A stretch of DNA of 64,000 nt from Bacteroidales bacterium (lineage in GTDB: Bacteria; Bacteroidota; Bacteroidia; Bacteroidales; JAADJA01), in assembly GCA_016783885.1 (NCBI GenBank), contig JADHVR010000001.1:54284-118283 (forward strand). The letters run 5' to 3'. Each line of letters begins with the position of its first letter. Position 1 is the stretch's first letter. This document shows positions 4,840-61,915 of the stretch, piece after piece. A program made the position numbers and the translations under genes. The notes beneath the pieces were generated by a model that saw only the letters and a list, made by a program, of their open reading frames with translations, ran no database searches and was not told where the DNA came from.

Positions 4840-7044
4840 TTAATCCAATTGCTTCCAAATCCCGTTAAGATAGCAGTAAATGTGATGGTCTGTTGAATTG
4901 ATATACAGGTCACCTTCTGATGGATCCGACGGAGCGCTGCTTCTCGGCTCAAGACGCATCACATCGCTTATGTGCAGGCTTCTTTGTGGATTTGTAGTGC
5001 CAATACCAACATTGCCATATTTAATTGTCACTGTACTATCAACTGCGCTATACAAAGTATCAGCATCAATTGTCCAGTCGTCATCTCCAGTAAAGCCAGA
5101 ATTAGAAATTACTTTAAGGGTACTGTCAGCAGGGTCCCATGTAACCAGGGAATCAGTTAGTGAGCCTAACACCATATCCTCTATTTTCAAAGCCCCTGCT
5201 ACATGGAGTTTTTCATCGGGATTTATTGTGCCGATACCAACATTGCCATATTTAATTGTCACTGTACTATCAACTGCGCTATACAAAGTATCAGCATCAA
5301 TTGTCCAGTCATCATCTCCAGTAAAGCCAGAATTAGAAATTATTTTAAGGGTACTGTCAGCAGGGTCCCATGTAACCAGGGAATCAGTTAGTGAGCCTAA
5401 CACCATATCCTCTATTTTCAAAGCCCCTGCTACATGGAGTTTTTCATCGGGATTTATTGTGCCGATACCAACATTACCTGCATTATCAATAGCGAATCGT
5501 GTTTCATTTCCTTGTCCGAATGAACGGTCGCGTATGTTAAAACTACCGGTCAGACCATCCAGGTAAAAATCCCACCAAAAATTACCTTCATCACCCTGGT
5601 TTGGCTGATTGCCCCAGATAAGCTCCACGCCCGGAGAAAATGCAGTAGCATCCGTAACCCGCCAGATACGCATTACCGCATCCGTACTGACAAGGTTTAA
5701 CGCACGATTGGCTTTTGTGCTGTTTACAGTATTTCCGAACGCACCTCTGCCGTAAACATGTAAAGGAGTGACTGGTGTTGTTGTGCCAATACCAACGTTG
5801 CCATATTTAATTGTTACTGTACTATCAGCTGCGCTATACAAAGTATCGTTATCAATCGTCCAGTCGTTATCACTGCTTAGACCGGTATAAGAAATTACTT
5901 TTAACTTACTGTCAGCCGGATCCCAGGTTACCAGCGAATCGGATGTGGAGCCTGCTACCATGTTCTCTATTTTTAATGCTCCGGCAACATGTAATTTTTC
6001 ATCCGGATTGGTTGTGCCGATACCAACATTTCCCGAAGTGTCAATGACCATGCGGGTTTCATTACCCTGTCCAAAAGAACGGTCGCGGATGTTAAAACTA
6101 CCGGTCAGTCCATCAAGGTAAAAATCCCACCAGAAATTACCTTCATCACCCTGATTTGGCTGATTGCCCCAGATAAGCTCCACGCCCGGAGAAAATGCAG
6201 TAGCATCCGTAACCCGCCAGATACGCATTACCGCATCCGTACTGACAAGGTTTAACGCACGATTGGCTTTTGTGCTGTTTATGGTATTTCCAAATGCACC
6301 TCTGCCGTTGACATGTAAAAGCGTGACCGGAGAGACAGTTCCGATCCCAACATTGCCGGGTACGGCAGCATACATATCATTTCCCGAGATGGTCCAGTCA
6401 GTATCGTTAATGGCCGAAGCGTGGATCTTTTTCAAAGTGCTGTCAGCAAAATCCCAGGTAACGAGTGAATCGGATAAGGAGCCGGTTGACAATTCTTCTA
6501 ATTTAAGATTACCGGCAACATGTAGCTTAGTATCGGGATTTATGATACCGATACCCACCTTTCCATCTTTAATTGTCACCGTACTATCAGCAGCGCTGTA
6601 TAAAGTATCAGAATCGGCTGTCCAGTCGCCGTCGTTACTGTATCCCGCATTTTCTGCATACAATGCATATGGTACGCTCAATACCTGTGTGGTTCCCATA
6701 GAGGTATAGGCACTTCCTCCATAAGGATCGAGTTCCACCTCCAGAAATTTGGAATTGTTTCCCCAATCAATATCTGCAAATATACCTGTTACCGGTGTCC
6801 CGTTACCAATTTCAAGATTTGCAATCCCGAACTGATTGGTTGTTGTGGCATGTGTCTCCTGGTAAAGGATGGTTCCGACAGCAGATCCGTCGCGTATACC
6901 GATTCGGAAACTAACGTTTTGATTCGATAAAATTTCGCCAGTTGCATCCCTTACTATCGCCTGGTATTTAAAAGCCTGTGGAGACTGGGCATTAGCGGAA
7001 ATAAATAAGAGAAATAAAACAACAAATAAAGCCAGTTTTTTCAT
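4840..7044 (-). CDS. Secreted tail-fibre-like repeat protein (NVGIGT-x-P-x-x-KLHV repeats), probable surface adhesin
   Basis: The signal peptide MKKLALFVVLFLLFISANAQ starts at the ATG at 7044. The ORF-track start at 7083 adds 13 aa. Contains multiple GNVGIGTxNPDEKLHVAG units. The C-terminus is GDLYINSTDHHIYCYLNGIWKQLD. Confidence 0.7.
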   Translation of the reverse strand: MKKLALFVVLFLLFISANAQSPQAFKYQAIVRDATGEILSNQNVSFRIGIRDGSAVGTILYQETHATTTNQFGIANLEIGNGTPVTGIFADIDWGNNSKFLEVELDPYGGSAYTSMGTTQVLSVPYALYAENAGYSNDGDWTADSDTLYSAADSTVTIKDGKVGIGIINPDTKLHVAGNLKLEELSTGSLSDSLVTWDFADSTLKKIHASAINDTDWTISGNDMYAAVPGNVGIGTVSPVTLLHVNGRGAFGNTINSTKANRALNLVSTDAVMRIWRVTDATAFSPGVELIWGNQPNQGDEGNFWWDFYLDGLTGSFNIRDRSFGQGNETRMVIDTSGNVGIGTTNPDEKLHVAGALKIENMVAGSTSDSLVTWDPADSKLKVISYTGLSSDNDWTIDNDTLYSAADSTVTIKYGNVGIGTTTPVTPLHVYGRGAFGNTVNSTKANRALNLVSTDAVMRIWRVTDATAFSPGVELIWGNQPNQGDEGNFWWDFYLDGLTGSFNIRDRSFGQGNETRFAIDNAGNVGIGTINPDEKLHVAGALKIEDMVLGSLTDSLVTWDPADSTLKIISNSGFTGDDDWTIDADTLYSAVDSTVTIKYGNVGIGTINPDEKLHVAGALKIEDMVLGSLTDSLVTWDPADSTLKVISNSGFTGDDDWTIDADTLYSAVDSTVTIKYGNVGIGTTNPQRSLHISDVMRLEPRSSAPSDPSEGDLYINSTDHHIYCYLNGIWKQLD
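5000..5461. repeat. Two tandem 231-bp (77-codon) copies inside the repeat-protein gene
   Basis: 5000-5230 versus 5231-5461 differ at only 3 positions by eye. A third, diverging copy starts at 5462. Confidence 0.9.
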
Positions 7045-7129
7045 ATTTCTTAATTTTTTAAAAATTGAATATTTACAGGGCATAAATTTACAAATTATTG
7101 TTGATATACAAAAAAGAATAGTAATATAT

Positions 7130-13748: not shown

Positions 13749-15307
13749 ATGACAATTAATAAGTTTATTCAAGCAATTCAAAAAAATAATTATTTCCCGA
13801 AATATTCCAAATGGATTTTCACTTTTTTATTTCTAATAATTTCTATAATATATAATTATCAAGATATTCTATTTAAATCGCCTCAAAGTTTACACCAATG
13901 GAGACAATGCGATTGCTTATCAATCACTATGAATTACTTTCAGGATAATAACCCTTTTTTCGAACCATCAGTTTATTATTTAGGTAGTGATGGCACAGGT
14001 AAAACTGTTAGTGATTTTCCTCTAATATATTTTTCAGTAGCACAATTATGGAAAATTTTTGGACATCACGAATTTATTTATCGACTTATTGTGTTGCTGT
14101 TTTTTTTCTCAAGTCTTATTGCATTGTTTAAAATATTTGAAAATACATTAAAAGATTCAGTATTAGCAATAATATTTCCCTTGTTTTTATTTACTTCACC
14201 CACTCTTGTATATTATGCTAATAATTTTTTAATGGATATTCCGGCATTTTCATTAGCAATTATCGGACTATATTTCTTTTTCAGATTTTATCAGTCATCA
14301 AAGAACAAATACCTGTATTTATTTATATTCTTTAATGCTATTGCCGGTTTATTAAAAATTTCATCTTTAATGAGTTTTATAGCTGTTTTGGGATTATTCA
14401 TGCTCGAATTTTTCAATGTGAAATTGAACCCGGACAGGAAAATATTTCAACATCCGCTAAAGCAAATCTTCCCATTAATTAGTGTCTTGATTATACAATT
14501 AATATGGTATATGTATGCAAGTTATTATAACTCAAATAATAATGCAGGAATTTTTCTAATTGGATATTTGCCAATATGGGACTTAAATATATCTCAAATC
14601 AAGATAACTCTTGATGCAATAAATGAACATATAAAATGGGATTATTTTAGAAAAGAAACTCAATTCGTTTTTATATTTATGTTTATTATAGTTCTTGTGT
14701 TTTATAAAAGGATAAATAAAATAATGCTCTTTTTTACAATTTTTCTTTCAACAGGTTTTCTTTTATTTATTCTTCTGTTTTTCAAGCCCTTAAAGACCAT
14801 GATTACTATACAATAAACTTATTTATCTTAATACCAATCGTAATATTGAGCTTTTTATTACTGTTAAGAAATAAATTCAAAGTAGTTTACACTTCTGTAT
14901 TTTTTAGAATTATTGTAATCGTATTTCTTATACATAACGTTGACTTTGCAAGAAGAAGAATTGAAGGTCGATATAGTCACAAAGGATGGCAAAACAAAAA
15001 TTACATAGATAGTATTCAGCCATTTGAGGAAATTACCCCATATCTACGATCCATTGGGATTAAAAAAAGTGATAGAGTAATTAGTTTATCGGATAATAGT
15101 ATAAATATTAGTTTATATTTAATGAATCAAAAGGGATGGACAAACTATGGAATATCAGCAGATAGTATAATAATTAAAGAAAAGATCAATCTTGGAGCAA
15201 AATATCTTTTAATATATAATAAAGAAACATATGAAGAGCGAAGTATTCAACCATTTATTGAAAATAAAATAGGTGAATTTAAGAATATTGATATCTATGC
15301 ATTATAA
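13749..15307 (+). pseudogene. Polytopic GT-C-like (PMT_2/ArnT-like) membrane protein split by a frameshift near 14790
   Basis: ORF 13749-14816 is very hydrophobic. The frame of ORF 14846-15307 is open back to 14720. Across the junction it reads ...LKDHDYYTINLFILIPIVILSFLLLLRNKF, continuing the membrane protein. One extra A in the AAA run at 14792-14794 would fuse the two frames. Confidence 0.55.
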
Positions 15308-15699: not shown

Positions 15700-17568
15700 T
15701 TAATTCTTCCTGAAATCCCTGATCCTGCCTGTTCTTTTTCTTATGTCGGGGAATTTTATAACATAGAAAATATCCACATAATAAGACAAAATATTTTTTA
15801 AATCTTTCCTGTTAACTAAATGTTGTATTTTTTTAGTTTCATAAAGTTTATCAGTGCAAACAATATCTCTGTCAACATCAAAACCTGCCCCGGTAACTAC
15901 TCTAGGCCCGGCAAATTCAACTAAGGCACCTTTCTCTCCAATTATAACATCTCCCTGAGTAACATAGCTGGCATAAGCTCCACCTGTAGTAGGTCCTGTA
16001 ATAACAGATAAATATAATATTCCTTTTCTTTTCAAATCTAATAAAGACATATTCATTTTTGCCATCTGAGCCAAAGCCATAGGCCCTTCATTCATTCTTG
16101 CCCCGCCTGAAGAACACACTGATATTAAAGGATAATTATTCTTTACAGCAAAATCAACAGCTCTTTTAAACTTTTCGCCAAATACTGCACCAAAAGACCC
16201 GCCAATAAATTTTATATCAGATATTACCAGAACAATATTCTTTCCATTCATCTTAGCAGTACCTGTTACCAAACTTTCTTTAGAAAAGGTTTTTCCATCC
16301 ATTCTTTCTAATAATTTTTTATAACTGCCATAATTATATCTTCTGCTTCCAATTAATTGTTTAATAGTTAAATCCGATTCTGTTTCATGAAATGAATCAC
16401 TATCACAAATCTTTGTTATTTGCTCTTCAATACAAAGATATTCGCCTTTCCCACACTTAGGACATGCATAAAAATTATCTATATATTCCTTTAAAGAAAC
16501 AAAACCACAACCACCGGCAACTTTAAATATGTTTTTTTCTTTATCCCATTCTTTTTCACATTCAAATATTTCTGTTTCATCAATACCCTCTTTTTCCAAA
16601 TGTGCTTTTATTAATATCTGAGTATAAAAATCTTCCCTCTCAATATCAATAGTTTTAATATTATTATGATTATGCACATTTCTTTTTATTACTCTTTTTG
16701 CAAGGGCTCCTAAAGTGTCATAAAATTTTCCATAATTCAATACCTTTTCTCTTCTCTCTTTCAATAATTTTTTAAGAGTTCTCTTGCTCATAACTTTTTT
16801 CCCTTTTTGATAAGGGCGCACCCATTCATTTAAGGCCTTAGTTAGAGATTTTTTTATTGTATTTATTGTAAATTTATAATTATTATGTGCTCCTTCTTTT
16901 GGTTCGGGAAGAATATCATCGATCATACCGATTTTTTTTATATGTTCCGCACCCGGACGCAATACCTCTAAAGCATCTTTCACTGTATCTTCTATGTCTT
17001 CGCCAGCAGTTAGTCTATTATGAAATATGATTCTGCTGCAACTTTCAGGGGCAATTACTGAATAGAGCGCATTTTCTAACATGTAGCTTTTATCACTTAC
17101 CTGAAAACCTAAAGCGCCACCACTTCCGCCCTCACCAATAATATAGGATACTGTGGGAGTTTTTACTTCACAAAATCTGCTAATACAATCGGAAATTAAA
17201 AATGATTGCCCGCCAAGCTCCGACTCCATTGAAGTGTCTCCACCAAAAGTATCAATAAATGAAATTACAGGTATTGTATTTTTTTCTGCTTCATCTAATA
17301 TATCAAGAGCAAATCCATAGCCTTTTGAGGTCAACATTCCGGTTGCTTCGCTATTTTTTCCCTTTCTTCTTTTCTCCTGTCCGAGTATTATGCAATCTAT
17401 TTTATTAATAGTTCCTTTCGCTGCAATAAGAGAAGGATCGGGTGATTTATAATAAGATATACTTTCAAAGACACTTTTAATAACATCGGAGCTTCTTATT
17501 CTTTTGGGATGCCTGATTAAATCATACCGATCTTTCAAGTTTCTTTTTGGTGTATGTTTTTTTTTCAT
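15700..17568 (-). CDS. Fused acetyl-CoA carboxylase carboxyltransferase, alpha (AccA-like) then beta (AccD-like) in one polypeptide
   Basis: 622 aa. N-terminal half: IPVISFIDTFGGDTSMESELGGQS...YIIGEGGSGGALGFQV...YSVIAPESC (AccA). C-terminal half: ACPKCGKGEY..., FIGGSFGAVFGEKF..., CSSGGARMNEGPMALAQMAK..., TGGAYASY..., FAGPRVV (AccD). Confidence 0.85.
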   Translation of the reverse strand: MKKKHTPKRNLKDRYDLIRHPKRIRSSDVIKSVFESISYYKSPDPSLIAAKGTINKIDCIILGQEKRRKGKNSEATGMLTSKGYGFALDILDEAEKNTIPVISFIDTFGGDTSMESELGGQSFLISDCISRFCEVKTPTVSYIIGEGGSGGALGFQVSDKSYMLENALYSVIAPESCSRIIFHNRLTAGEDIEDTVKDALEVLRPGAEHIKKIGMIDDILPEPKEGAHNNYKFTINTIKKSLTKALNEWVRPYQKGKKVMSKRTLKKLLKERREKVLNYGKFYDTLGALAKRVIKRNVHNHNNIKTIDIEREDFYTQILIKAHLEKEGIDETEIFECEKEWDKEKNIFKVAGGCGFVSLKEYIDNFYACPKCGKGEYLCIEEQITKICDSDSFHETESDLTIKQLIGSRRYNYGSYKKLLERMDGKTFSKESLVTGTAKMNGKNIVLVISDIKFIGGSFGAVFGEKFKRAVDFAVKNNYPLISVCSSGGARMNEGPMALAQMAKMNMSLLDLKRKGILYLSVITGPTTGGAYASYVTQGDVIIGEKGALVEFAGPRVVTGAGFDVDRDIVCTDKLYETKKIQHLVNRKDLKNILSYYVDIFYVIKFPDIRKRTGRIRDFRKN

Positions 17569-44864: not shown

Positions 44865-44936
44865 AGCCATTGACGAGAATTGAACTCGTGACCCCTTCCT
44901 TACCAAGGAAGCGCTCTACCGCTGAGCTACAATGGC
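44865..44936 (-). tRNA. tRNA-Thr(GGT): tRNA-Thr (anticodon GGT)
   Basis: Minus strand reads GCCATTGTAGCTCAGCGGTAGAGCGCTTCCTTGGTAAGGAAG...GTTCAATTCTCGTCAATGGCT. Confidence 0.9.
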
Positions 44937-44942
44937 TTTTTG

Positions 44943-45015
44943 AGCGGGAGACCGGGCTCGAACCGGCCACCTACAGCTTGGAAGGCTGTCGCTCTACCAA
45001 ATGAGCTACTCCCGC
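44943..45015 (-). tRNA. tRNA-Gly(TCC): tRNA-Gly (anticodon TCC)
   Basis: Minus strand reads GCGGGAGTAGCTCATTTGGTAGAGCGACAGCCTTCCAAGCTGT...GGTTCGAGCCCGGTCTCCCGCT. Confidence 0.9.
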
Positions 45016-45086
45016 GATAAGCGGTTTTAAGTTTCCTGTTTAGAGTTAACTTCAAATTTCAAACTCGAAACATCAAACTTTTTTTG

Positions 45087-45168
45087 TGGGGAGAGGAGGA
45101 TTCGAACCTCCGAAGGCTTCGCCAACAGATTTACAGTCTGCCCCATTTGACCGCTCTGGAATCTCCCC
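45087..45168 (-). tRNA. tRNA-Tyr(GTA): tRNA-Tyr (anticodon GTA), long variable arm
   Basis: Minus strand reads GGGGAGATTCCAGAGCGGTCAAATGGGGCAGACTGTAAATCTGTTGGCGAAGCCTTCGGAGGTTCGAATCCTCCTCTCCCCA. Confidence 0.9.
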
Positions 45169-45197
45169 AGCTTTAATTTCAATACTTAAAAGAACAG

Positions 45198-45271
45198 AGC
45201 CAATGGAGGGATTCGAACCCCCGGCCGGCTGATTACAAATCAGCTGCTCTGACCAACTGAGCTACATTGGC
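45198..45271 (-). tRNA. tRNA-Thr(TGT): tRNA-Thr (anticodon TGT)
   Basis: Minus strand reads GCCAATGTAGCTCAGTTGGTCAGAGCAGCTGATTTGTAATCAGC...GGTTCGAATCCCTCCATTGGCT. Confidence 0.9.
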
Positions 45272-45685: not shown

Positions 45686-46573
45686 TTATGCCCTTGGATG
45701 GGCTTGTTTATATATTGTTTTAAGCTTTTCGATGGTATTATGTGTGTAAATTTGTGTTGCTGCTAAATTTGCATGACCCAAAATTTCTTTAATAGCATTG
45801 AGGTCGGCTCCATTATTAAGCATATGTGTTGCAAATGTGTGTCGTAACACGTGAGGACTCTTTTTTTGTAATGTAGAAACTTTACTAAGATATGAATTTA
45901 CGATACGATATACAAGTTTTTTATAGATTTTTTTCCCTTTTTCTGTTACGATAAAATAGTCAACAGGTTCTGTTATTTCTATTTCTTTGTTTCTTACTTC
46001 TTTATATTGAATAATTAAATCTCTCAGTTCATTGCAAAACGGTATTATTCTTTCTTTATTTCTTTTCCCGAGCACTTTTACTTTCAGGTTTTTAATATCC
46101 ACATCAGTATCTGTCAGGTTTGTCATCTCAGATAATCGTATACCGGTAAAGTAAAATATTTCAATAATTAATTTATCCCTTATACCCCTGAAATTATCTC
46201 CAAATTCAACCTGGTCAAATAATAAGTCCATTTTCTCCCGGTTAACGAATTCAGGTAATCTTTTTTTTGTTTTAGGCGGGAGAATTTTAGTTAACGGATT
46301 TTGTTTAATCAGGTTTTCTTTTAATAAAAATTTGTAAAAGGTTTTAAGTGTTGATAGTTTCCTGTTTATCGACCTGGATGATATGGAATCATTTGCTAAA
46401 TGAACAATCCATGAACGAATAATTGAATGGTTAATGTCATGGATGTTTTTAATATTATATTCACTTGCGATATAATCGAAAAACTGGTAAAGGTCTTTTT
46501 GGTAAGCTATAATTGTATTAGGTGAGTATCTTTTTTCAAATGTAATATATTGAATAAACCTTTCTGAATACAT
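45686..46573 (-). CDS. Tyrosine recombinase, XerC/XerD family
   Basis: 295 aa. HVLRHTFATHML and LGHANLAATQIYTH. Lies in the conserved rpsU-xer-hpf neighbourhood. Confidence 0.9.
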   Translation of the reverse strand: MYSERFIQYITFEKRYSPNTIIAYQKDLYQFFDYIASEYNIKNIHDINHSIIRSWIVHLANDSISSRSINRKLSTLKTFYKFLLKENLIKQNPLTKILPPKTKKRLPEFVNREKMDLLFDQVEFGDNFRGIRDKLIIEIFYFTGIRLSEMTNLTDTDVDIKNLKVKVLGKRNKERIIPFCNELRDLIIQYKEVRNKEIEITEPVDYFIVTEKGKKIYKKLVYRIVNSYLSKVSTLQKKSPHVLRHTFATHMLNNGADLNAIKEILGHANLAATQIYTHNTIEKLKTIYKQAHPRA

Positions 46574-50647: not shown

Positions 50648-51886
50648 ATGAAGAAGAGAAGCTTTTTTGCCATTTTCATGGCAACGTTAGTATGTATTGC
50701 CCCTTCTGAATTGTTTTCTCAAAATGAGATTTCGGGTATCGTAACTTACCACAATGAAGAAGCTACTCCACTTACAGGTGTTGATGTAAATCTTCTGGAT
50801 TTAAATGGTAATTTGTTAGAAACAGTATCTTCCGATGAAAATGGGAAGTATATGTTTACCGGTATAGAAGAAGGAGAATATTTGCTTAAAGCAAGTTATG
50901 ATCAGCCAGCGTTTAATGCAATTAGTTTGGATGATATCATATTGTTGTTACAATATTTGAATGGATATACCACTCTTGAACCTATTCAAAAGCTTGCGGC
51001 TGATGTAGATGGAAATGGAATGGTAAACTATGATGACTTTTTTATGATTATTGAATATTGGTACTTGTATGGGGCACCTTTTCCTGTCGGAGATTGGGTA
51101 TTTGAGGAAAAGTTAGTTATGGCAGGTGGCAAAGGAGATGATGGAATAGGAGGAGGCGCAACAGGAGATGTACAGGGAGGATTCGATCCTGGTAAAGGTG
51201 GAAACAACTATTTGAATTTCTACAAAACAAATAATTATTTAGAGGTGCTTCCCAATCATATCAATAAATTACCAATTTCTGTTGATAATAATACTGATAT
51301 TGGAAGTTTTTGTATTGAATTATATTATGATAATCAAATTGTAGATGTAAAAAGTATAGAATCGGAACTTAATAATTATCGGTATATAATAACTGATAAT
51401 AAAATTAGAATAATATGGGCTGATACTGATCTTGAGGGAATCTCAATTAACAGTACAAGTAATCTTTTTTCAATTGATTTTGACTTGAAAGACAAAAATG
51501 CTGACTTAAATAAAGAAATATTTTTTCTTGGCTCAGAAAGTAAAATAACTGACGTTAAAGGCAATACTTATTATAATGTTGGAATAACTTATCCTTCGTT
51601 AAAATATAATCAGATATTTAGCTGGGAAGTTAATAATTATCCAAATCCGTTTAGAGAATATACATATATTGATTATTCTCTTCCTGAAACAGGTAATGTT
51701 CAATTATATATCACAGATATTAACGGGAAGTTGATTAAGTCGTTAGTAAATGAAATAAAGCCTGAAGGAAACTATAAAACAAAGCTTGATGGGAGTGCCT
51801 TAAATCCCGGAATTTATTTTTATCAGTTAATTTTTACAGGAAGTGAAAGAAATACAGTAAAGAATAAATTAATGAAAATTGAATAA
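50648..51886 (+). CDS. T9SS-sorted secreted protein (CarboxypepD_reg-like, dockerin-like, cohesin-like, Por_Secre_tail)
   Basis: 412 aa. Signal peptide, ISGIVTY...DENGKYMFTGIEEGEYLL, the Ca-binding dockerin-like ADVDGNGMVNYDDF, and C-terminal NNYPNPFREYTYIDYSLPETGNVQLYITDINGKLI...GIYFYQL. Confidence 0.8.
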   Translation: MKKRSFFAIFMATLVCIAPSELFSQNEISGIVTYHNEEATPLTGVDVNLLDLNGNLLETVSSDENGKYMFTGIEEGEYLLKASYDQPAFNAISLDDIILLLQYLNGYTTLEPIQKLAADVDGNGMVNYDDFFMIIEYWYLYGAPFPVGDWVFEEKLVMAGGKGDDGIGGGATGDVQGGFDPGKGGNNYLNFYKTNNYLEVLPNHINKLPISVDNNTDIGSFCIELYYDNQIVDVKSIESELNNYRYIITDNKIRIIWADTDLEGISINSTSNLFSIDFDLKDKNADLNKEIFFLGSESKITDVKGNTYYNVGITYPSLKYNQIFSWEVNNYPNPFREYTYIDYSLPETGNVQLYITDINGKLIKSLVNEIKPEGNYKTKLDGSALNPGIYFYQLIFTGSERNTVKNKLMKIE

Positions 51887-52015: not shown

Positions 52016-55000
52016 ATGAGGTTTATTAAATCCGAACATATTAAATCGCTTTTTTTTATAAATTTTTGCGCTTTTATTACCTTTTTGATTTTAAGTAATA
52101 ATTACGCCCTGGGTAATAATTTCTCAATTGAAAAAGACTTATCAGATGCTGAAAAATATTACATGACTGCACAAAAATACTTTTCAAACACAGAAGAATA
52201 TGATAGTGCAGTTGTAAATTATACACACGCAGCATCTTTGTTTCTTAAGCTTGAAGACTGGAAAGGTTTAATTATGTGTAATCTGAAATTAACAGAGTGC
52301 TTTAATATTAAAGGAGAATTTCAATTAGCTTTAGATAATGCCAACCGGGCGATGCAGATTGCCGATTTACATCTTTCACAAGATGAATTACTCTTTTCGG
52401 ATATTTATTATTTATTGGGAAAAACTGAATACGAATTGGGAAATTATAATGAATCCATCTCACGTTTAAAAAAGGGATTACAATATATTGATCATAGTAA
52501 AACCGAATATGACAGTATAAAAGTGCTTGTTTTTAAAACATTAGGAAATAATTATCTCAGGCTGGGGAAATTAAATATAGCATTAAAATCGTATAATGAC
52601 GCATTATACATTGAATTTGATAGAAATGGCGATTCTACTTTATCTGTTGCTGTTTTATATGCCAACATCGGAATTGTTTATTCAGCCAAAGGCTATTATT
52701 TTGAGGCTGAAAAATATATAAGAAACTCTATAAGAATTACGGAACAGTTGCTGCCTGTAACAGATCCAGAATTGGCAAGGGGTTATGTGAATTTAGGAAG
52801 GCTTCTGGTAATAATAGGGAATACTAATGATGCCCTGAACTATTTTAATAAGGCAGAAGAAATTTATATTGAAAAGTTTGGACCGGATTATTATAAACTG
52901 GCTTTAGTTTATTTTAATAAAGGAGGTATATTTATTCTGAAAAATGATTTTCAAAAAGCTTTAACTTATCACGAAAAAGCCTTAGAAATTTATTCGAAAT
53001 ATTTAAAGCCTTCAAATGCTGTATTTGGAAAATTATATGGCAACTTCGGGTTGATATATAAAAATTTAGGTGATTATAATAAAGCCATTGAATTTTATAA
53101 AATAGCTATTGATAAAATTTCGAATACAGAATCTGAAATTATCGGATTAAGAAATTTAGCCACTTGTTATCAGGCTATAAATGACTATGATAAAGCCGGG
53201 TTTTATTATAGGCTTTCAATTGAGAAAGCCATTGAACTCTTTGGGAATAATCACACTCAACTTGCAGATTGTTATTTATATTTTGGTGAATTTTATAATG
53301 AGATAAATGATTTTGATAAAGCAGGAGAATTATTCAATAAAGCATATTTTATATATAAAAATAATTTTGGAGAGAAAAACAGGGATGTAGCAAACGTATT
53401 AACTTATATTGGCGATCTTTTTTTAACACTTCAGGATTATAATAATGCTTTGAATTATTATCAATCGTCATTATTATCCATTGTTAATAACTTTAACGAT
53501 AGCATTATTTATAATAATCCGGTTTTATCGCAACTCACCCAGGATGTAAATACAATTGATTGCCTTGATAAAAAGGCAAAAACATTTTATTTTTTATATT
53601 TAAAAAAAACTAATAATATAAATGATCTGATCGCCTGTCTTGAATCGGGCGAACTTGCCATTCAGTTATTTGAGATTATTAGAGTTTCATATACCGGTGA
53701 GAGTATTAAATTACTGGCAACTCAAAAAATAAACAATCTTTACAAGATATTAATATTAGCATCAGTTGAATTATATAAAAGAACCGGAGATACTCAGTAT
53801 TTGAAATCAGCATTTGAATACTCTGAGAAAAACAAAGCGGCTGTTCTCCTGTCATCAATAAAAGAATTAGAGGCAATGGATTTTAGTAATGTTCCTGTTG
53901 ATATTATGGATTTTGAACGATCCCTGAAAAATGATCTTGCAAATTACAGGAATTTAATTTTTGAGGAAGAACTAAAAAAAGAACCTGATGAAGATAAACT
54001 TATTAAATGGAAAAATGATTATTTTGAAATAACAAAAAAATATGATAGCCTGATATCGAATATAGAAAATAACTATCCTGAATATTATCAATTAAAGTAT
54101 GATAATAGTGTAATGGATATTGATAAAATCCAGGCGGGTTTAAGTGATGAGGATGTGTTTATCGAGTATGCACTTGTTGATTCTGTTTTAGTAATTTTTT
54201 GTATCTCATCCGACACATTAATTTATAACCTTGTGAACCTGAAGAATAATTTTAAAGAAAATGTGCTTAGTTATATCGAAATAACACATAATTTACCCGA
54301 AATAGAAAATAGTAAAGAAGGATTTATTAAATTTACAAATCTTGCCCATGAATTATTTCAATTTTTACTTGAACCAATTAGTGATTGCATATCAGAAAAA
54401 AAATTATTGATTATTCCTGATGATATTCTTGGTTACATCTCTTTTGAAAGTTTAATTAATAGAATGCCTGATACCGGTAAAGTCAATTATAAAAACCTTT
54501 CCTATATAATCAAGAACCATTCGGTTTCATATAGTTATTCAGCTACACTTTTATTTAAAGAATTAACAAAAAGAAAAAATACCGGGAAATTATTAGCTAT
54601 GGCTCCCCTTTATAATAATATAAATGATACATATAATATTGGTTATATAAACAGAATGGAGTACGAACAGCTTATAACCCCATTGGATTATAATGTTGAT
54701 GAGGTAACACAAATTCATGAAATAATGGGGGGTAAAAGCCTTACCGGCAAAGAAGCTTCTGAGAAATATTTCAAACTAAATGCTCAAAAATATAATATTC
54801 TTCATTTGGCAATGCATGCATTTATAAATGATGATGAGCCATTAGCCTCAAAATTAGTTTTTACATTTGATACTGATTCAATTGAAGATGGTTTTTTAAA
54901 CACGTATGAGATTTATAATCTGGACTTGAATGCACAATTGGCTGTATTAAGTGCTTGTAAAACCGGAGCGGGTAAATTAAGCAAGGGTGAGGGTATTATG

Positions 55001-55351
55001 AGTCTGGCTCGTGGATTTTTTTATGCTGGCGTACCCGGTATAGTTATGACTTTATGGGAGATTGAAGACGTTTCGAGCGCTGAAATTATGACAGAATTTT
55101 ATAAAAGCCTTAAAAGAGGTTTGACGAAAGATGAAGCCCTGAGAATTGCTAAATTGTCCTATCTCGAGTCAGCGAACCAGTTAAATGCTCATCCTTATTT
55201 CTGGGCTGCTTATGTACAAATTGGTGACAATTCACCAATTGCCACCAATTTTTTTATTAAGCATTATTATTTTTTTATTATTATATTCCTTGCTTGTATA
55301 GGAAGTGTTTACCTTGTAAAAGTTATTAGTGCCAGGAAAAAATCAAAATAA
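52016..55351 (+). CDS. Membrane-anchored TPR-repeat plus CHAT-domain (caspase-fold) protease
   Basis: 1111 aa. N-terminal hydrophobic signal/anchor. About 500 aa of TPR-like repeats (YYxLGxxYxxLGxYxxAIxxY pattern). C-terminal CHAT with His in ILHLAMHAF and Cys in AVLSACKTGAG. Terminal TM YFFIIIFLACIGSVYLV. Confidence 0.8.
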   Translation: MRFIKSEHIKSLFFINFCAFITFLILSNNYALGNNFSIEKDLSDAEKYYMTAQKYFSNTEEYDSAVVNYTHAASLFLKLEDWKGLIMCNLKLTECFNIKGEFQLALDNANRAMQIADLHLSQDELLFSDIYYLLGKTEYELGNYNESISRLKKGLQYIDHSKTEYDSIKVLVFKTLGNNYLRLGKLNIALKSYNDALYIEFDRNGDSTLSVAVLYANIGIVYSAKGYYFEAEKYIRNSIRITEQLLPVTDPELARGYVNLGRLLVIIGNTNDALNYFNKAEEIYIEKFGPDYYKLALVYFNKGGIFILKNDFQKALTYHEKALEIYSKYLKPSNAVFGKLYGNFGLIYKNLGDYNKAIEFYKIAIDKISNTESEIIGLRNLATCYQAINDYDKAGFYYRLSIEKAIELFGNNHTQLADCYLYFGEFYNEINDFDKAGELFNKAYFIYKNNFGEKNRDVANVLTYIGDLFLTLQDYNNALNYYQSSLLSIVNNFNDSIIYNNPVLSQLTQDVNTIDCLDKKAKTFYFLYLKKTNNINDLIACLESGELAIQLFEIIRVSYTGESIKLLATQKINNLYKILILASVELYKRTGDTQYLKSAFEYSEKNKAAVLLSSIKELEAMDFSNVPVDIMDFERSLKNDLANYRNLIFEEELKKEPDEDKLIKWKNDYFEITKKYDSLISNIENNYPEYYQLKYDNSVMDIDKIQAGLSDEDVFIEYALVDSVLVIFCISSDTLIYNLVNLKNNFKENVLSYIEITHNLPEIENSKEGFIKFTNLAHELFQFLLEPISDCISEKKLLIIPDDILGYISFESLINRMPDTGKVNYKNLSYIIKNHSVSYSYSATLLFKELTKRKNTGKLLAMAPLYNNINDTYNIGYINRMEYEQLITPLDYNVDEVTQIHEIMGGKSLTGKEASEKYFKLNAQKYNILHLAMHAFINDDEPLASKLVFTFDTDSIEDGFLNTYEIYNLDLNAQLAVLSACKTGAGKLSKGEGIMSLARGFFYAGVPGIVMTLWEIEDVSSAEIMTEFYKSLKRGLTKDEALRIAKLSYLESANQLNAHPYFWAAYVQIGDNSPIATNFFIKHYYFFIIIFLACIGSVYLVKVISARKKSK

Positions 55352-56880: not shown

Positions 56881-58047
56881 TTAATCCCATATTCCATTAA
56901 TGATTGTTTTACAAAATTTACACTTACCGTTTTCAATATTGTTTTCGAGTAGTCTATAACCTTTTCTTTTAATAATTATTTTATTACAATTAGGACAAAA
57001 AGTGTTTTCAGCATCAGATCCGGGTACATTTCCGATGTAAATATAATTAATACCTGCTTTAATAGCAACATACCTCGCCTTTTCTAATGTTGAGACAGGA
57101 GTTGCCGGTAAATTTGTTAGTTGATACTGAGGATGAAACCTGCTGAAATGAAGCGGTGAATCTTTAAAACCATTCTCAGCCAGCCATTCACACATTTCTT
57201 TTATCACATCCAAATCATCAGTCCAGCTTGGTACAATTAAATTGGTTATTTCGAGCCAGACTCCTTCTTCTTTCAGGATTTTTAAGGTGTTTAACACCGG
57301 CTCTAATGTTCCGGCATTGAGCATTTCATAAGTTTCATTGCTGAAAGATTTCAGGTCGATATTTGCTGCATCAATATATTTGCACCATTCTCTTAATGGT
57401 TTTTCATGAATATATCCCGCAGAGACAATAATATTTTTTACTCCTTTTTCTCTTGCAATTTTTGCAGTATCCAATGTGTACTCGTAAAAAGCAATCGGCT
57501 CTGAATATGTGTATGCAATCGATTTACAGTCGTATTCAAGGCATTGTTCCACCACTTTTTCAGGCATTAAATCATAGTTTCTTGTCTTTTGGGGGCTTGT
57601 TTGCGAAATTTCCCAATTCTGACAATTCAGACATGCCAGGTTGCATCCTGCTGTTGCAATTGAGAATGCATTGCTGGTTGGGTAAAAATGATAAAGCGGT
57701 TTTTTTTCAATCGGGTCAACATGCACTGCACATGGATTTCCATAAGCGGTGCTGTAGAGTTTTCCGTCAACATTTATCTTTGTCCGGCAATCGCCTTCCT
57801 CGTCCGGTTTAATATTGCATTTATTGGGGCATAACTGGCACTTTAATCCTTTGGGTGTATTTACATAATATTTTGCTTCAATGCTCCATTTGTCTAAGTC
57901 GCCTGAAAATGAGGGCAATCCTGTGGCATGTTCCATTGCTATTGCTTTTGACAGGAAATTTAAGTTGCAGAAACCATAAGATAAAGCCCCGATACTTAGA
58001 GCGCTTTTTTTTAAAAATTCTCTTTTTGATATTTTGTTGTGAGCCAT
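56881..58047 (-). CDS. AmmeMemoRadiSam-system radical SAM enzyme with a Tat-like N-terminal signal
   Basis: 388 aa. CNLACLNCQNW (CX3CX2C). The N-terminus MAHNKISKREFLKKSALSIGALS resembles a twin-arginine signal with KR in place of RR. C-terminal CPNC...CKFC. Confidence 0.8.
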   Translation of the reverse strand: MAHNKISKREFLKKSALSIGALSYGFCNLNFLSKAIAMEHATGLPSFSGDLDKWSIEAKYYVNTPKGLKCQLCPNKCNIKPDEEGDCRTKINVDGKLYSTAYGNPCAVHVDPIEKKPLYHFYPTSNAFSIATAGCNLACLNCQNWEISQTSPQKTRNYDLMPEKVVEQCLEYDCKSIAYTYSEPIAFYEYTLDTAKIAREKGVKNIIVSAGYIHEKPLREWCKYIDAANIDLKSFSNETYEMLNAGTLEPVLNTLKILKEEGVWLEITNLIVPSWTDDLDVIKEMCEWLAENGFKDSPLHFSRFHPQYQLTNLPATPVSTLEKARYVAIKAGINYIYIGNVPGSDAENTFCPNCNKIIIKRKGYRLLENNIENGKCKFCKTIINGIWD

Positions 58048-60376: not shown

Positions 60377-61915
60377 ATGAGCATGAAAAAATGTATCCTT
60401 TCCGTGATTGTTTTCCTGGCTTTATTATGTACAGATTGTTCGGCACAGGAGAGCAAAGAAAAAAGCCAGTCAAACCAGCAGATCTATAACCGCCAGCCTG
60501 CCGTTGCCGGACAGTTTTATCCTGCTGATAAGAATGAATTGGAAAAAATGCTGGGCAATCTGTTTTCGCAAGCTGAAACAAAAAAGAAAGAAAATGTGCT
60601 TGCCGTTATTTCGCCTCATGCAGGCTATGTGTTTTCGGGTGAGGTTGCTGCTTCAGGTTTAAACCAGATTGACCCGGAAAAATCTTATGAAAATATTTTT
60701 GTGATTGCTTCGAGCCACAGAGCATATTACGAAGGAGCTTCGATTTATTACCTCGGAAATTATATTACTCCGCTTGGAGAGGTTAAAGTTAATATTGACC
60801 TTGCAAAACAACTTGCCGAAAAAAATAAGGTTTTTTCTTATGTGCCCAAAGCCCATATATCTGAACACAGCATCGAAGTTCAACTTCCGATGTTACAATA
60901 CAAAATGAAAAAGGATTTTCAGATTGTGCCAATCGTTATAGGAACGCAATCGCAGAAGGTTTGCAGGGAAATGGCTGAAATACTGAAACCTTATTTTAAA
61001 AAGAATAACCTTTTTGTGATAAGTTCTGATTTTTCGCATTATCCGCCTTATGAAGATGCCAATAAACTGGATATAGAAACTGCCGAAGCAATTATATTAA
61101 ATAATCCTGACGAGTTTATTAAAGTTATAAATGATAAGAAAAATGCCAGGGTTCCGGATTTATCAACACGTGCCTGCGGCTGGACCTCCGTGCTTACATT
61201 ATTATATATAACCGAAAACAATCTGGATGTTGAATATGCCTTTATTCAATACATGAATTCGGGTGATATGGATTTTGGTGATAAAAGCAGGGTAGTAGGT
61301 TATAATTCAATTGTAGTTAGTGAAAAGAAAGGTTCCGTTGAAAATACTGAATTCCGGCTTACTGATAAAGACAAAAAAGATTTGCTCGAAATTGCACGGA
61401 CAACTATTGTTGAATACATTTCAAACAATGAAGTTCCGAAACTAAATTCCGGCGATTACTCCGATAACCTTAAAGTGCATTGCGGCGCTTTTGTAACTTT
61501 GAATAAAAACCACAGCTTGCGCGGGTGTATCGGAAGGTTTATAGCCGATGAGCCTTTGTATAAAGTTATTCAGCAGATGGCTGTTGCATCTTCTACACAA
61601 GATACACGTTTCCTGCCGGTAAAGAAAGAGGAAATTAACGACATTGAAATTGAGATTTCTGTTCTGACCCCCATGATAAAAATCGAATCGATTAACGAAA
61701 TTGAGTTGGGTAAACATGGGATTTATATTAAAAAAGGATACAGGTCAGGGACTTTCCTTCCACAGGTTGCCACTGAAACGGGGTGGAATTTAGAAGAGTT
61801 CTTAGGGCATTGTGCAAGAGATAAAGCCGGAATTGGATGGGAAGGATGGAAGGATGCCGATGTCTATATTTATGAAGCTAATGTGTTTATAGAGGAAGAT
61901 TTTAAGGAAAAATGA
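60377..61915 (+). CDS. Fused AmmeMemoRadiSam protein B (MEMO1-like) and protein A (AMMECR1) with an N-terminal signal peptide
   Basis: 512 aa. Signal MSMKKCILSVIVFLALLCTDCSAQ. MEMO part VAGQFYPADKNELEKML...VISPHAGYVFSG. AMMECR1 part GAFVTLNKNHSLRGCIGRF...GTFLPQV. Confidence 0.85.
   Translation: MSMKKCILSVIVFLALLCTDCSAQESKEKSQSNQQIYNRQPAVAGQFYPADKNELEKMLGNLFSQAETKKKENVLAVISPHAGYVFSGEVAASGLNQIDPEKSYENIFVIASSHRAYYEGASIYYLGNYITPLGEVKVNIDLAKQLAEKNKVFSYVPKAHISEHSIEVQLPMLQYKMKKDFQIVPIVIGTQSQKVCREMAEILKPYFKKNNLFVISSDFSHYPPYEDANKLDIETAEAIILNNPDEFIKVINDKKNARVPDLSTRACGWTSVLTLLYITENNLDVEYAFIQYMNSGDMDFGDKSRVVGYNSIVVSEKKGSVENTEFRLTDKDKKDLLEIARTTIVEYISNNEVPKLNSGDYSDNLKVHCGAFVTLNKNHSLRGCIGRFIADEPLYKVIQQMAVASSTQDTRFLPVKKEEINDIEIEISVLTPMIKIESINEIELGKHGIYIKKGYRSGTFLPQVATETGWNLEEFLGHCARDKAGIGWEGWKDADVYIYEANVFIEEDFKEK

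Follow-up and report, generated by a model that had tools for sequence, protein, structure and literature searches.

We describe a 622-residue protein from an uncultured Bacteroidales bacterium that joins, in a single polypeptide, an AccA-like (alpha) half followed by an AccD-like (beta) half of the carboxyltransferase (CT) component of acetyl-CoA carboxylase (ACC). The gene lies at positions 15700..17568 on the reverse strand of a 64,000-nucleotide stretch of contig JADHVR010000001.1 (positions 54,284 to 118,283; assembly GCA_016783885.1), the whole of which is referred to below as the window. The protein is a previously undescribed, conserved variant of a very well-known enzyme, and its database annotation is only generic. 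We found no stand-alone alpha-then-beta CT fusion described in the literature, the only precedents being the Shewanella protein AccS and some remarks of a general kind on "partially fused" ACCs. As judged from sequence, it is likely that this protein serves as the housekeeping CT for type II fatty-acid synthesis in an uncultured lineage of Bacteroidota, with AccB and AccC encoded elsewhere.

Domain architecture and predicted structure

The gene is a complete open reading frame (ORF) with an ATG start, coding for 622 amino acids followed by a stop. Residues 12-264 match the Pfam family ACCA (PF03255; 186.8 bits against a cut-off of 23) across profile positions 54-303 of 310, and residues 412-559 match Carboxyl_trans (PF01039; 104.6 bits against a cut-off of 22.3). 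The NCBIfam models delimit the same two halves: residues 13-282 align with positions 59-316 of 321 in the accA model TIGR00513 (158.1 bits; equivalog cut-off 319.3), residues 13-263 with positions 2-249 of 257 in the AccA_sub model NF041504 (186.5 bits; cut-off 300), and residues 351-599 with positions 29-277 of 285 in the accD model TIGR00515 (184.9 bits; cut-off 317.45); NF004344 scored 178.2 bits (cut-off 357). The best sequence matches in the PDB are Staphylococcus aureus AccD (2f9i_B, E=5e-38) and S. aureus AccA (6e-31). The ORF and the Pfam, NCBIfam and PDB matches thus agree with a preliminary description of this DNA, made from the sequence alone, which had read the gene as a single-polypeptide AccA-then-AccD CT. 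Biotin carboxylase (BC) and biotin carboxyl carrier protein (BCCP) domains are not found in the protein, where Pfam recognizes only ACCA and Carboxyl_trans and the chain ends at residue 622.

The helical N-terminal segment of long AccAs is missing from the alpha half. Because the stop-to-stop frame around the ORF comprises only 633 codons, the corresponding segment of ~55 residues cannot be hidden upstream. Its absence, to which the preliminary description had drawn attention, is therefore real, but it falls within known natural variation, as seen in the short AccA of Chloroflexus and in many AccAs of 255-290 residues in the reference loci. The linker between the halves was earlier put at ~90 residues; this was an overestimate, because AccA homology reaches to about residue 283 and an invariant cysteine stands at position 337, which leaves about 50-65 residues (284-336/347).

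Examination of a 68-sequence alignment of the family revealed that both glycine-rich motifs are preserved: G145, G147, G148, S149, G150, G151 and A152 of the alpha motif and S487, G488, G489, A490, R491 and M492 of the beta motif are invariant, and the stretches PTTGG (526-530) and FAGPRV (552-557) show little or no variation. A catalytic role is assigned to these glycine motifs by analogy with the well-studied CT structures of Escherichia coli and S. aureus. The members of the Bacteroidota family share a C-terminal motif, P..R...GRI.DFRK, which the related clade of ~42-45% identity does not have.

An AlphaFold2 model built with the same alignment has a mean predicted local distance difference test score (pLDDT) of 89 and a predicted template modelling score (pTM) of 0.90, so that the placement of the two lobes relative to each other is defined. 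Both termini and linker residues 281-310 (pLDDT 56-68) are poorly defined, and a helix is predicted at 314-326. Compared with solved chains, the beta lobe gives template modelling (TM) scores of 0.84-0.86 with AccD and the alpha lobe 0.72-0.89 with AccA, the best match of the latter being the short, 273-residue AccA of Chloroflexus (9m70_B, TM 0.89). For the whole chain the top Foldseek match is the Shewanella AccADCB holoenzyme (9kkm_A; E 3.7e-23, TMq 0.60). The features of the protein are collected in Table 1.

Table 1. Features of the fused carboxyltransferase gene, in window coordinates
Feature	Residues	Window position	Strand	Basis
Predicted single-chain AccA-then-AccD carboxyltransferase, complete ORF	1-622	15700..17568	-	ORF call, domains, identical and homologous clusters
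AccA-like (alpha) half, short-AccA type, complete to the AccA C-terminal helix	12-283	16720..17535	-	Pfam, NCBIfam, TM 0.72-0.89
GEGGSGGA, alpha-subunit glycine-rich oxyanion-hole motif	145-152	17113..17136	-	Invariant in 68 sequences
Linker, no AccA or AccD homology	284-336	16561..16719	-	NCBIfam limits, AlphaFold2 model, highest dN/dS
Remodelled zinc-ribbon region, C337-x16-C354-x14-C369-x2-C372	337-376	16441..16560	-	Four invariant Cys, alignment, low dN/dS
AccD-like (beta) catalytic core	377-600	15769..16440	-	TIGR00515, Carboxyl_trans, 2f9i_B E=5e-38, TM 0.84-0.86
SSGGARM, beta-subunit glycine-rich oxyanion-hole motif	486-492	16093..16113	-	Invariant residues in alignment
C-terminal basic tail, beyond the AccD model	601-622	15703..15768	-	Family alignment, pLDDT 57-74

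A conserved family under purifying selection

Sequence searches with the fused protein recovered 335 matches with E<=1e-10, the best 112 of which are 49-100% identical to it and mostly about 620 residues long. More than 100 protein clusters of ~620 residues and 57-95% identity make up the family, whose named members come from metagenome-assembled genomes (MAGs) of Bacteroidota or Bacteroidales, some of them on contigs of 1.4-4.1 Mb. A protein 100% identical to that of the window (P0001) is labelled "hypothetical protein" in a Bacteroidetes MAG, and the identical 622-residue ORF occurs on 10-13 independent contigs. One relative with 59% identity (P0277, in the cluster of P0107; MBT3691259.1) is deposited as "Candidatus Woesearchaeota archaeon" and most likely comes from a mis-binned bacterial contig. 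No close relatives were found on plasmids, a plasmid search returning only distant canonical accD/accA pairs, all of <35% identity.

Comparison with orthologues of 95% and 82% identity gave ratios of nonsynonymous to synonymous substitution rates (dN/dS) of 0.14 and 0.21 respectively, with both halves constrained. The linker is the most relaxed region (0.23 and 0.46) and the zinc-ribbon region the least, with the lowest values of the gene (0.10-0.15). The ORF runs uninterrupted for 620-660 codons in about 40 independent loci. The only interrupted copy in the loci examined lies on a short JGI metagenome contig (L121, LGVC01044060.1, 3-1023), where the beta half is split over two frames (3-398 and 352-1023), through either an assembly error or a rare pseudogenization. 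On the strength of the cross-assembly conservation and of the dN/dS values we rejected a pseudogene or an assembly chimera as the explanation of the window gene.

A probable remodelled zinc ribbon

According to the preliminary description the zinc ribbon of the AccD-like half had kept only its second CxxC pair. The degeneracy of the first pair is borne out in that the first zinc ligand of E. coli AccD, C27, aligns with Ala351, and in that Zn_ribbon_ACC finds no match; the next cysteine, C30, aligns with C354. The loss of all but the second pair is not, however, what the family displays: four cysteines, C337, C354, C369 and C372, are invariant in alignments of 17 and of 68 members, including the clade with 42-45% identity. 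The spacing between the first two varies from ~6 to 16 residues across the family, and the same relocated-cysteine arrangement is found in a Desulfatiglans alpha-then-beta fusion of only 37% identity. In the structural model the strands 333-337 and 355-358 flank a small hairpin (pLDDT 85-92). Together these patterns suggest that a four-cysteine site is probably kept, with C337, about 17 residues upstream of the canonical position, as its first ligand, and that the first CxxC knuckle has probably been expanded by a 16-residue hairpin insert.

When representative proteins (P0121-P0268) were examined across phyla, the form of the ribbon was seen to track the order of fusion. The relocated-cysteine pattern occurs in 22 of 35 alpha-then-beta fusions and in none of 111 beta-then-alpha fusions, and the canonical CxxC...CxxC ribbon in 1 of 35 as against 69 of 111. 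The alpha-then-beta proteins mostly have C-x5-24-C...CxxC, and the beta-then-alpha proteins keep CxxC...CxxC or are without a ribbon. Three proteins with the beta half only (P0146, P0187 and P0214) have the variant site together with a linker-like N-terminal extension; these may be split descendants of fusions or fragments of them.

Fusion order and origin of the two halves

An exhaustive HMMER pass over 1.84 billion representative sequences gave 7369 matches. Among the best 150 of these, 30 clusters have the alpha-then-beta order and 111 the beta-then-alpha order, from which it appears that the order seen in the window is recurrent but in the minority. The entire Bacteroidota family forms one cluster at 50% identity.

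We then cut the two halves from fused and canonical proteins and compared each separately, using a small reference set of canonical and beta-then-alpha loci. Against its counterparts in alpha-then-beta fusions from other phyla the alpha half reaches 199-212 bits, compared with 148 for the best canonical AccA and 130 for the best beta-then-alpha fusion; for the beta half the corresponding values are 228-240, 165 and 155 bits. In rough neighbour-joining trees a single clade, at least 90% pure, takes in 41 of the 42 beta halves that come from alpha-then-beta fusions, and for 37 of 43 alpha halves the closest neighbour is another fusion of this order. As the matches listed from the exhaustive search include no canonical single-domain AccA or AccD above ~165 bits, this result does not depend on the small size of the reference set. 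By sequence comparison, then, the protein belongs to an old alpha-then-beta fusion lineage that extends across phyla. The possibility that accA and accD of Bacteroidota had fused recently and locally was considered and rejected, both halves being nearest to the alpha-then-beta fusions of other phyla.

These closest relatives of both halves (the Desulfatiglans MAG protein of 611 residues, L007; P0114-P0120, one of them labelled Deltaproteobacteria; in all ~30 clusters at 50% identity) have the same order, a similar length and the relocated cysteine, and are likewise solitary, yet they are only 37-45% identical to the window protein. The insert that separates their first cysteine from the second is shorter than in the window protein (6-11 residues), and they are without the Bacteroidota-specific insert at 186-193 and without the C-terminal tail. 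No characterized member was found among them.

Lombard and Moreira scored the Bacteroidetes, as sampled in 2011, as having a two-subunit CT (PMC3199775), and in this clade, therefore, the fused gene either took the place of the canonical pair or joined it. Tentatively, we propose that the old alpha-then-beta lineage with its remodelled ribbon (C-x6-16-C...CxxC) may have displaced the two-gene accA/accD system and become the sole CT of a large uncultured clade of Bacteroidota. If this is true, a core component of fatty-acid synthesis would have undergone xenologous displacement, giving rise to a natural single-chain CT.

Genomic context

We examined the gene-neighborhoods of 41 family loci (±10 kb, 554 kb in total; genes not linked to the CT fall outside such flanks). 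The gene is monocistronic in all 41 and stands next to a varying set of mostly housekeeping genes, among them core genes such as tsf/rpsB, mreBC/purH, clpB/gyrA, argS and parE. The window itself also holds tsf, rpsB, rpsI, rplM, the nqr genes, rpoBC and the tuf cluster. That the gene is solitary, with no accB or accC nearby, was stated from the outset and was upheld at every scale: no acc, biotin or fab genes were found in the window or within about 10 kb past each edge (about 84 kb), and in the 41 loci the 10 kb on either side of the gene contain neither a second CT nor a biotin carboxylase, BCCP or FabZ. There is nothing unusual in such isolation: in E. coli, too, neither accA nor accD is linked to accBC (PMC11602165). 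When the flanks were scanned for Rfam families and for promoters and terminators, nothing rose above background.

The gene had further been described as lying in a region of gene remnants and as more AT-rich than its surroundings. Neither impression held: the neighbouring ORFs are intact and recur identically in other assemblies, the only candidate remnant being a split glycosyltransferase gene (see below), and the difference in composition is marginal, with a GC content of 0.327 (mean of the genes, 0.354 ± 0.044) and GC at third codon positions of 0.226 (mean, 0.308 ± 0.061); the codon-usage distance, 0.060, is a typical value in the window. The idea that an AT-rich island had been acquired horizontally was accordingly rejected. 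For the adjacent core gene tsf, the encoded EF-Ts has a group of relatives at 95-100% identity and the next at ~80-82%, with the matches listed reaching down to ~72%; the CT shows a similar profile, with groups at 93-100% and 79-83%. This likeness gives a weak hint that the gene may have been inherited vertically among near relatives.

Proposed function and its relation to known systems

By homology with known ACCs, the alpha-like and beta-like halves, both of the crotonase fold, would pack against each other, and two chains would probably dimerize into the equivalent of the canonical alpha2-beta2 assembly. AccC would charge biotin on a separate BCCP (AccB), and the resulting carboxybiotin would donate CO2 to acetyl-CoA at the alpha/beta interface, where GEGGSGGA and SGGARM are expected to stabilize the enolate and ureido oxyanions. 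The fusion would fix a 1:1 stoichiometry, and the covalent link may stand in for the missing N-terminal helices of AccA. In the beta half the zinc domain would be kept in remodelled form, with C337 probably taking the place of the first ligand in the CxxC knuckle. We infer enzymatic activity, dimerization, zinc binding by C337, the partnership with AccB and AccC and, tentatively, the status as sole CT.

The canonical two-subunit enzymes (E. coli 2f9y/8uz2, S. aureus 2f9i/5kdr, Chloroflexus aurantiacus 9m70) are built of the same crotonase-fold modules with the same motifs (GEGGSGGA, SGGARM, PTxGG); as in canonical AccD, a zinc domain, here a putative one, precedes the beta core, and the alpha half of the window protein is short like the AccAs of Chloroflexus and Firmicutes. 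It differs from them in being one polypeptide with a ~50-residue linker instead of two subunits, in a probable relocation of its first zinc ligand, in its basic C-terminal tail and in an identity of only ~30-34%.

The Shewanella oneidensis AccS, or AccADCB (PDB 9kkm, 9w4a; PMC11602165), also has CT-alpha preceding CT-beta in one chain, but this chain of 1517 residues carries BC and BCCP as well. With a score of only 62 bits against the window protein, well below that of canonical AccD, it is probably an independent fusion. It nevertheless shows that an alpha-then-beta single-chain CT can be part of a bacterium's working ACC: AccS is the organism's ACCase, and the growth defect caused by its reduced expression is rescued by the E. 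coli acc genes (PMC11602165).

Proteins such as AccDA, the beta subunits of PCC and ACC, and the CT domain of eukaryotic ACC likewise carry both modules in one chain, in the opposite order. A clean case of such a fusion inside a fatty-acid-synthesis cluster is seen in a locus labelled Parabacteroides distasonis (L030, CAVAKZ010000012.1, 7608-11575), which has a Firmicutes-style accB-fabZ-accC-accDA arrangement with a beta-then-alpha CT of 573 residues; its taxonomic label may be wrong. This locus and the Shewanella AccS together indicate that fused CTs act as housekeeping ACC components elsewhere.

Weighing the alternatives

Several observations point to a housekeeping enzyme: the protein is conserved and under purifying selection, its motifs are invariant, its neighbours are core genes, it is absent from plasmids, and its composition is ordinary. 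Three others weigh against this conclusion. Both halves score far under the NCBIfam equivalog cut-offs for accA and accD; the Pfam model Zn_ribbon_ACC (PF17848) finds no match in the protein; and the halves are closer to the fusions of other phyla than to any canonical AccA or AccD, so that the gene could be an addition to the canonical pair and not its replacement. This last point is the crux of the most substantial alternative, which we regard as rather unlikely: that the protein is an auxiliary CT beside canonical AccA/AccD or a PCC-type acyl-CoA carboxylase, sharing their BC and BCCP and acting under another condition or on another acyl-CoA substrate. Matches of 199-240 bits to fusions from other phyla, as against at most 165 to canonical proteins, fit a horizontal acquisition on top of the ancestral two-subunit CT (PMC3199775), and scores below the equivalog cut-offs agree with it. 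An accessory enzyme would sit less easily with the uniform length and motifs across more than 100 clusters, the strong purifying selection and a core-gene neighborhood in every one of the 41 loci; moreover, the invariant motifs give no sign of a remodelled substrate pocket. Nor is there a second CT in the 554 kb of flanks, where unlinked genes would not show.

The preliminary description had raised such an accessory role, offering an auxiliary, a decarboxylase-type or a resistance-type CT. We found no positive support for these proposals, conservation, selection and context pointing instead to the housekeeping CT, an outcome that the description itself had named as contrary to its reading, and the phylogeny of the halves speaks for an old lineage. 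That the protein is the CT part of a biotin-dependent decarboxylase or transcarboxylase, for instance a malonyl-CoA or malonate decarboxylase or a Na+ pump, seems improbable to us. It does have weak matches to the malonate decarboxylase beta and gamma subunits and to MmdA, and the organism looks anaerobic (hyp genes, radical-SAM enzymes), but the matches to TIGR03133 and TIGR03134 (MdcD/MdcE; 60.6 against 278.15 and 43.6 against 237.15 bits), to TIGR01117 (MmdA/GcdA type; 72.1 against 998.8 bits) and to GcdA (1pix_A, E=0.0083) are much weaker than those to AccA and AccD. Systems of this kind are normally operonic, and the Na+-translocating decarboxylase CTs (MmdA/GcdA) are ~500-residue beta-then-alpha proteins whose genes form a cluster with those for a membrane beta subunit and a biotin carrier. 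The window CT has the opposite order, and in none of the 41 loci does it adjoin a decarboxylase membrane beta-subunit, biotin-carrier, mdc or mad gene.

Equally absent from immediate proximity in the 41 loci are biosynthetic-cluster genes, which bears on the idea of a self-resistance or target-replacement CT directed against natural products of the andrimid/moiramide class. Nothing beyond the divergence from canonical CTs speaks for this idea, and we think it very improbable: the gene is never in or beside a biosynthetic gene cluster, its close relatives are absent from plasmids, and with its core-like divergence profile it looks vertically conserved. The residue aligned with Met203 of E. coli AccD, which we take to be the site of the andrimid-resistance change in AdmT, is an invariant threonine (Thr528). 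S. aureus AccD also has a threonine here ("hpttgg"), and the S. aureus CT has been crystallized with moiramide B bound (PDB 5kdr). Scarcely credible, lastly, is a non-functional relic or an artefact of assembly or annotation, for instance a chimera made by joining adjacent accA and accD genes. The split beta half on the L121 contig is its one supporting instance, to be set against an identical ORF on 10-13 independent contigs, ~40 uninterrupted loci and dN/dS values of 0.14-0.21. A housekeeping CT hence appears to us the reading that best accommodates the evidence.

Other features of the window

At lower window coordinates lies a gene for a PMT_2-family membrane glycosyltransferase of 355 residues (13749-14816, +), followed 30 bp on, in another frame, by a 153-residue ORF without a Pfam match (14846-15307, +). 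Both have a GC content of 0.257, their combined size approximates that of a full-length ArnT/PMT-like protein, and the split recurs in other assemblies (L002, L003); the pair could represent one gene that is split or broken by a frameshift, or else two genuine genes. A 747-residue ORF (4840-7083, -) has no Pfam family and a GC content of 0.436, as against 0.347 for the window; its counterpart in another assembly (L093) is called as 824 residues, with only a faint match to DUF5440. A gene of the tyrosine recombinase/phage-integrase family (45686-46573, -) adjoins four tRNA genes (44865-45271) upstream of tuf, and could code for a Xer-type housekeeping recombinase or mark the edge of an integrated element.

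A low-GC stretch at 49-57 kb (0.28-0.29) could be a variable or accessory region. It contains a gene for an 1111-residue TPR-repeat protein with a C-terminal CHAT (caspase-like protease) domain (52016-55351, +), and also codes for a cohesin/dockerin protein with a type IX secretion system sorting tail (50648-51886), a small histidine kinase and an ECF-like (extracytoplasmic function) sigma factor. Further on, a 512-residue fusion of Memo-like and AMMECR1 domains (60377-61915, +) lies ~2 kb away from a radical-SAM enzyme (56881-58047, -). These are presumably the three components of the "AmmeMemoRadiSam" system, two of them fused here.

Implications

The chemistry and the fold of the fused CT are conventional, and its description refines a well-known system; it does not add a new one. 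A natural single-chain CT with a fixed 1:1 ratio of its halves could ease the problems of subunit balance and toxicity met in malonyl-CoA engineering (e.g. PMC9130761), and structural studies could benefit from it as well. The way in which the form of the zinc ribbon follows domain order offers a handle on the role of the zinc domain of AccD, for which autoregulation through mRNA binding has been proposed in E. coli and disputed (PMC2831308; noted as challenged in PMC11602165). Should the protein be the sole CT of its hosts, an essential two-subunit enzyme would have given way in this lineage of Bacteroidota to a single chain in which the domain order is reversed and the zinc site rebuilt, and core lipid metabolism would offer a neat example of gene fusion combined with displacement.

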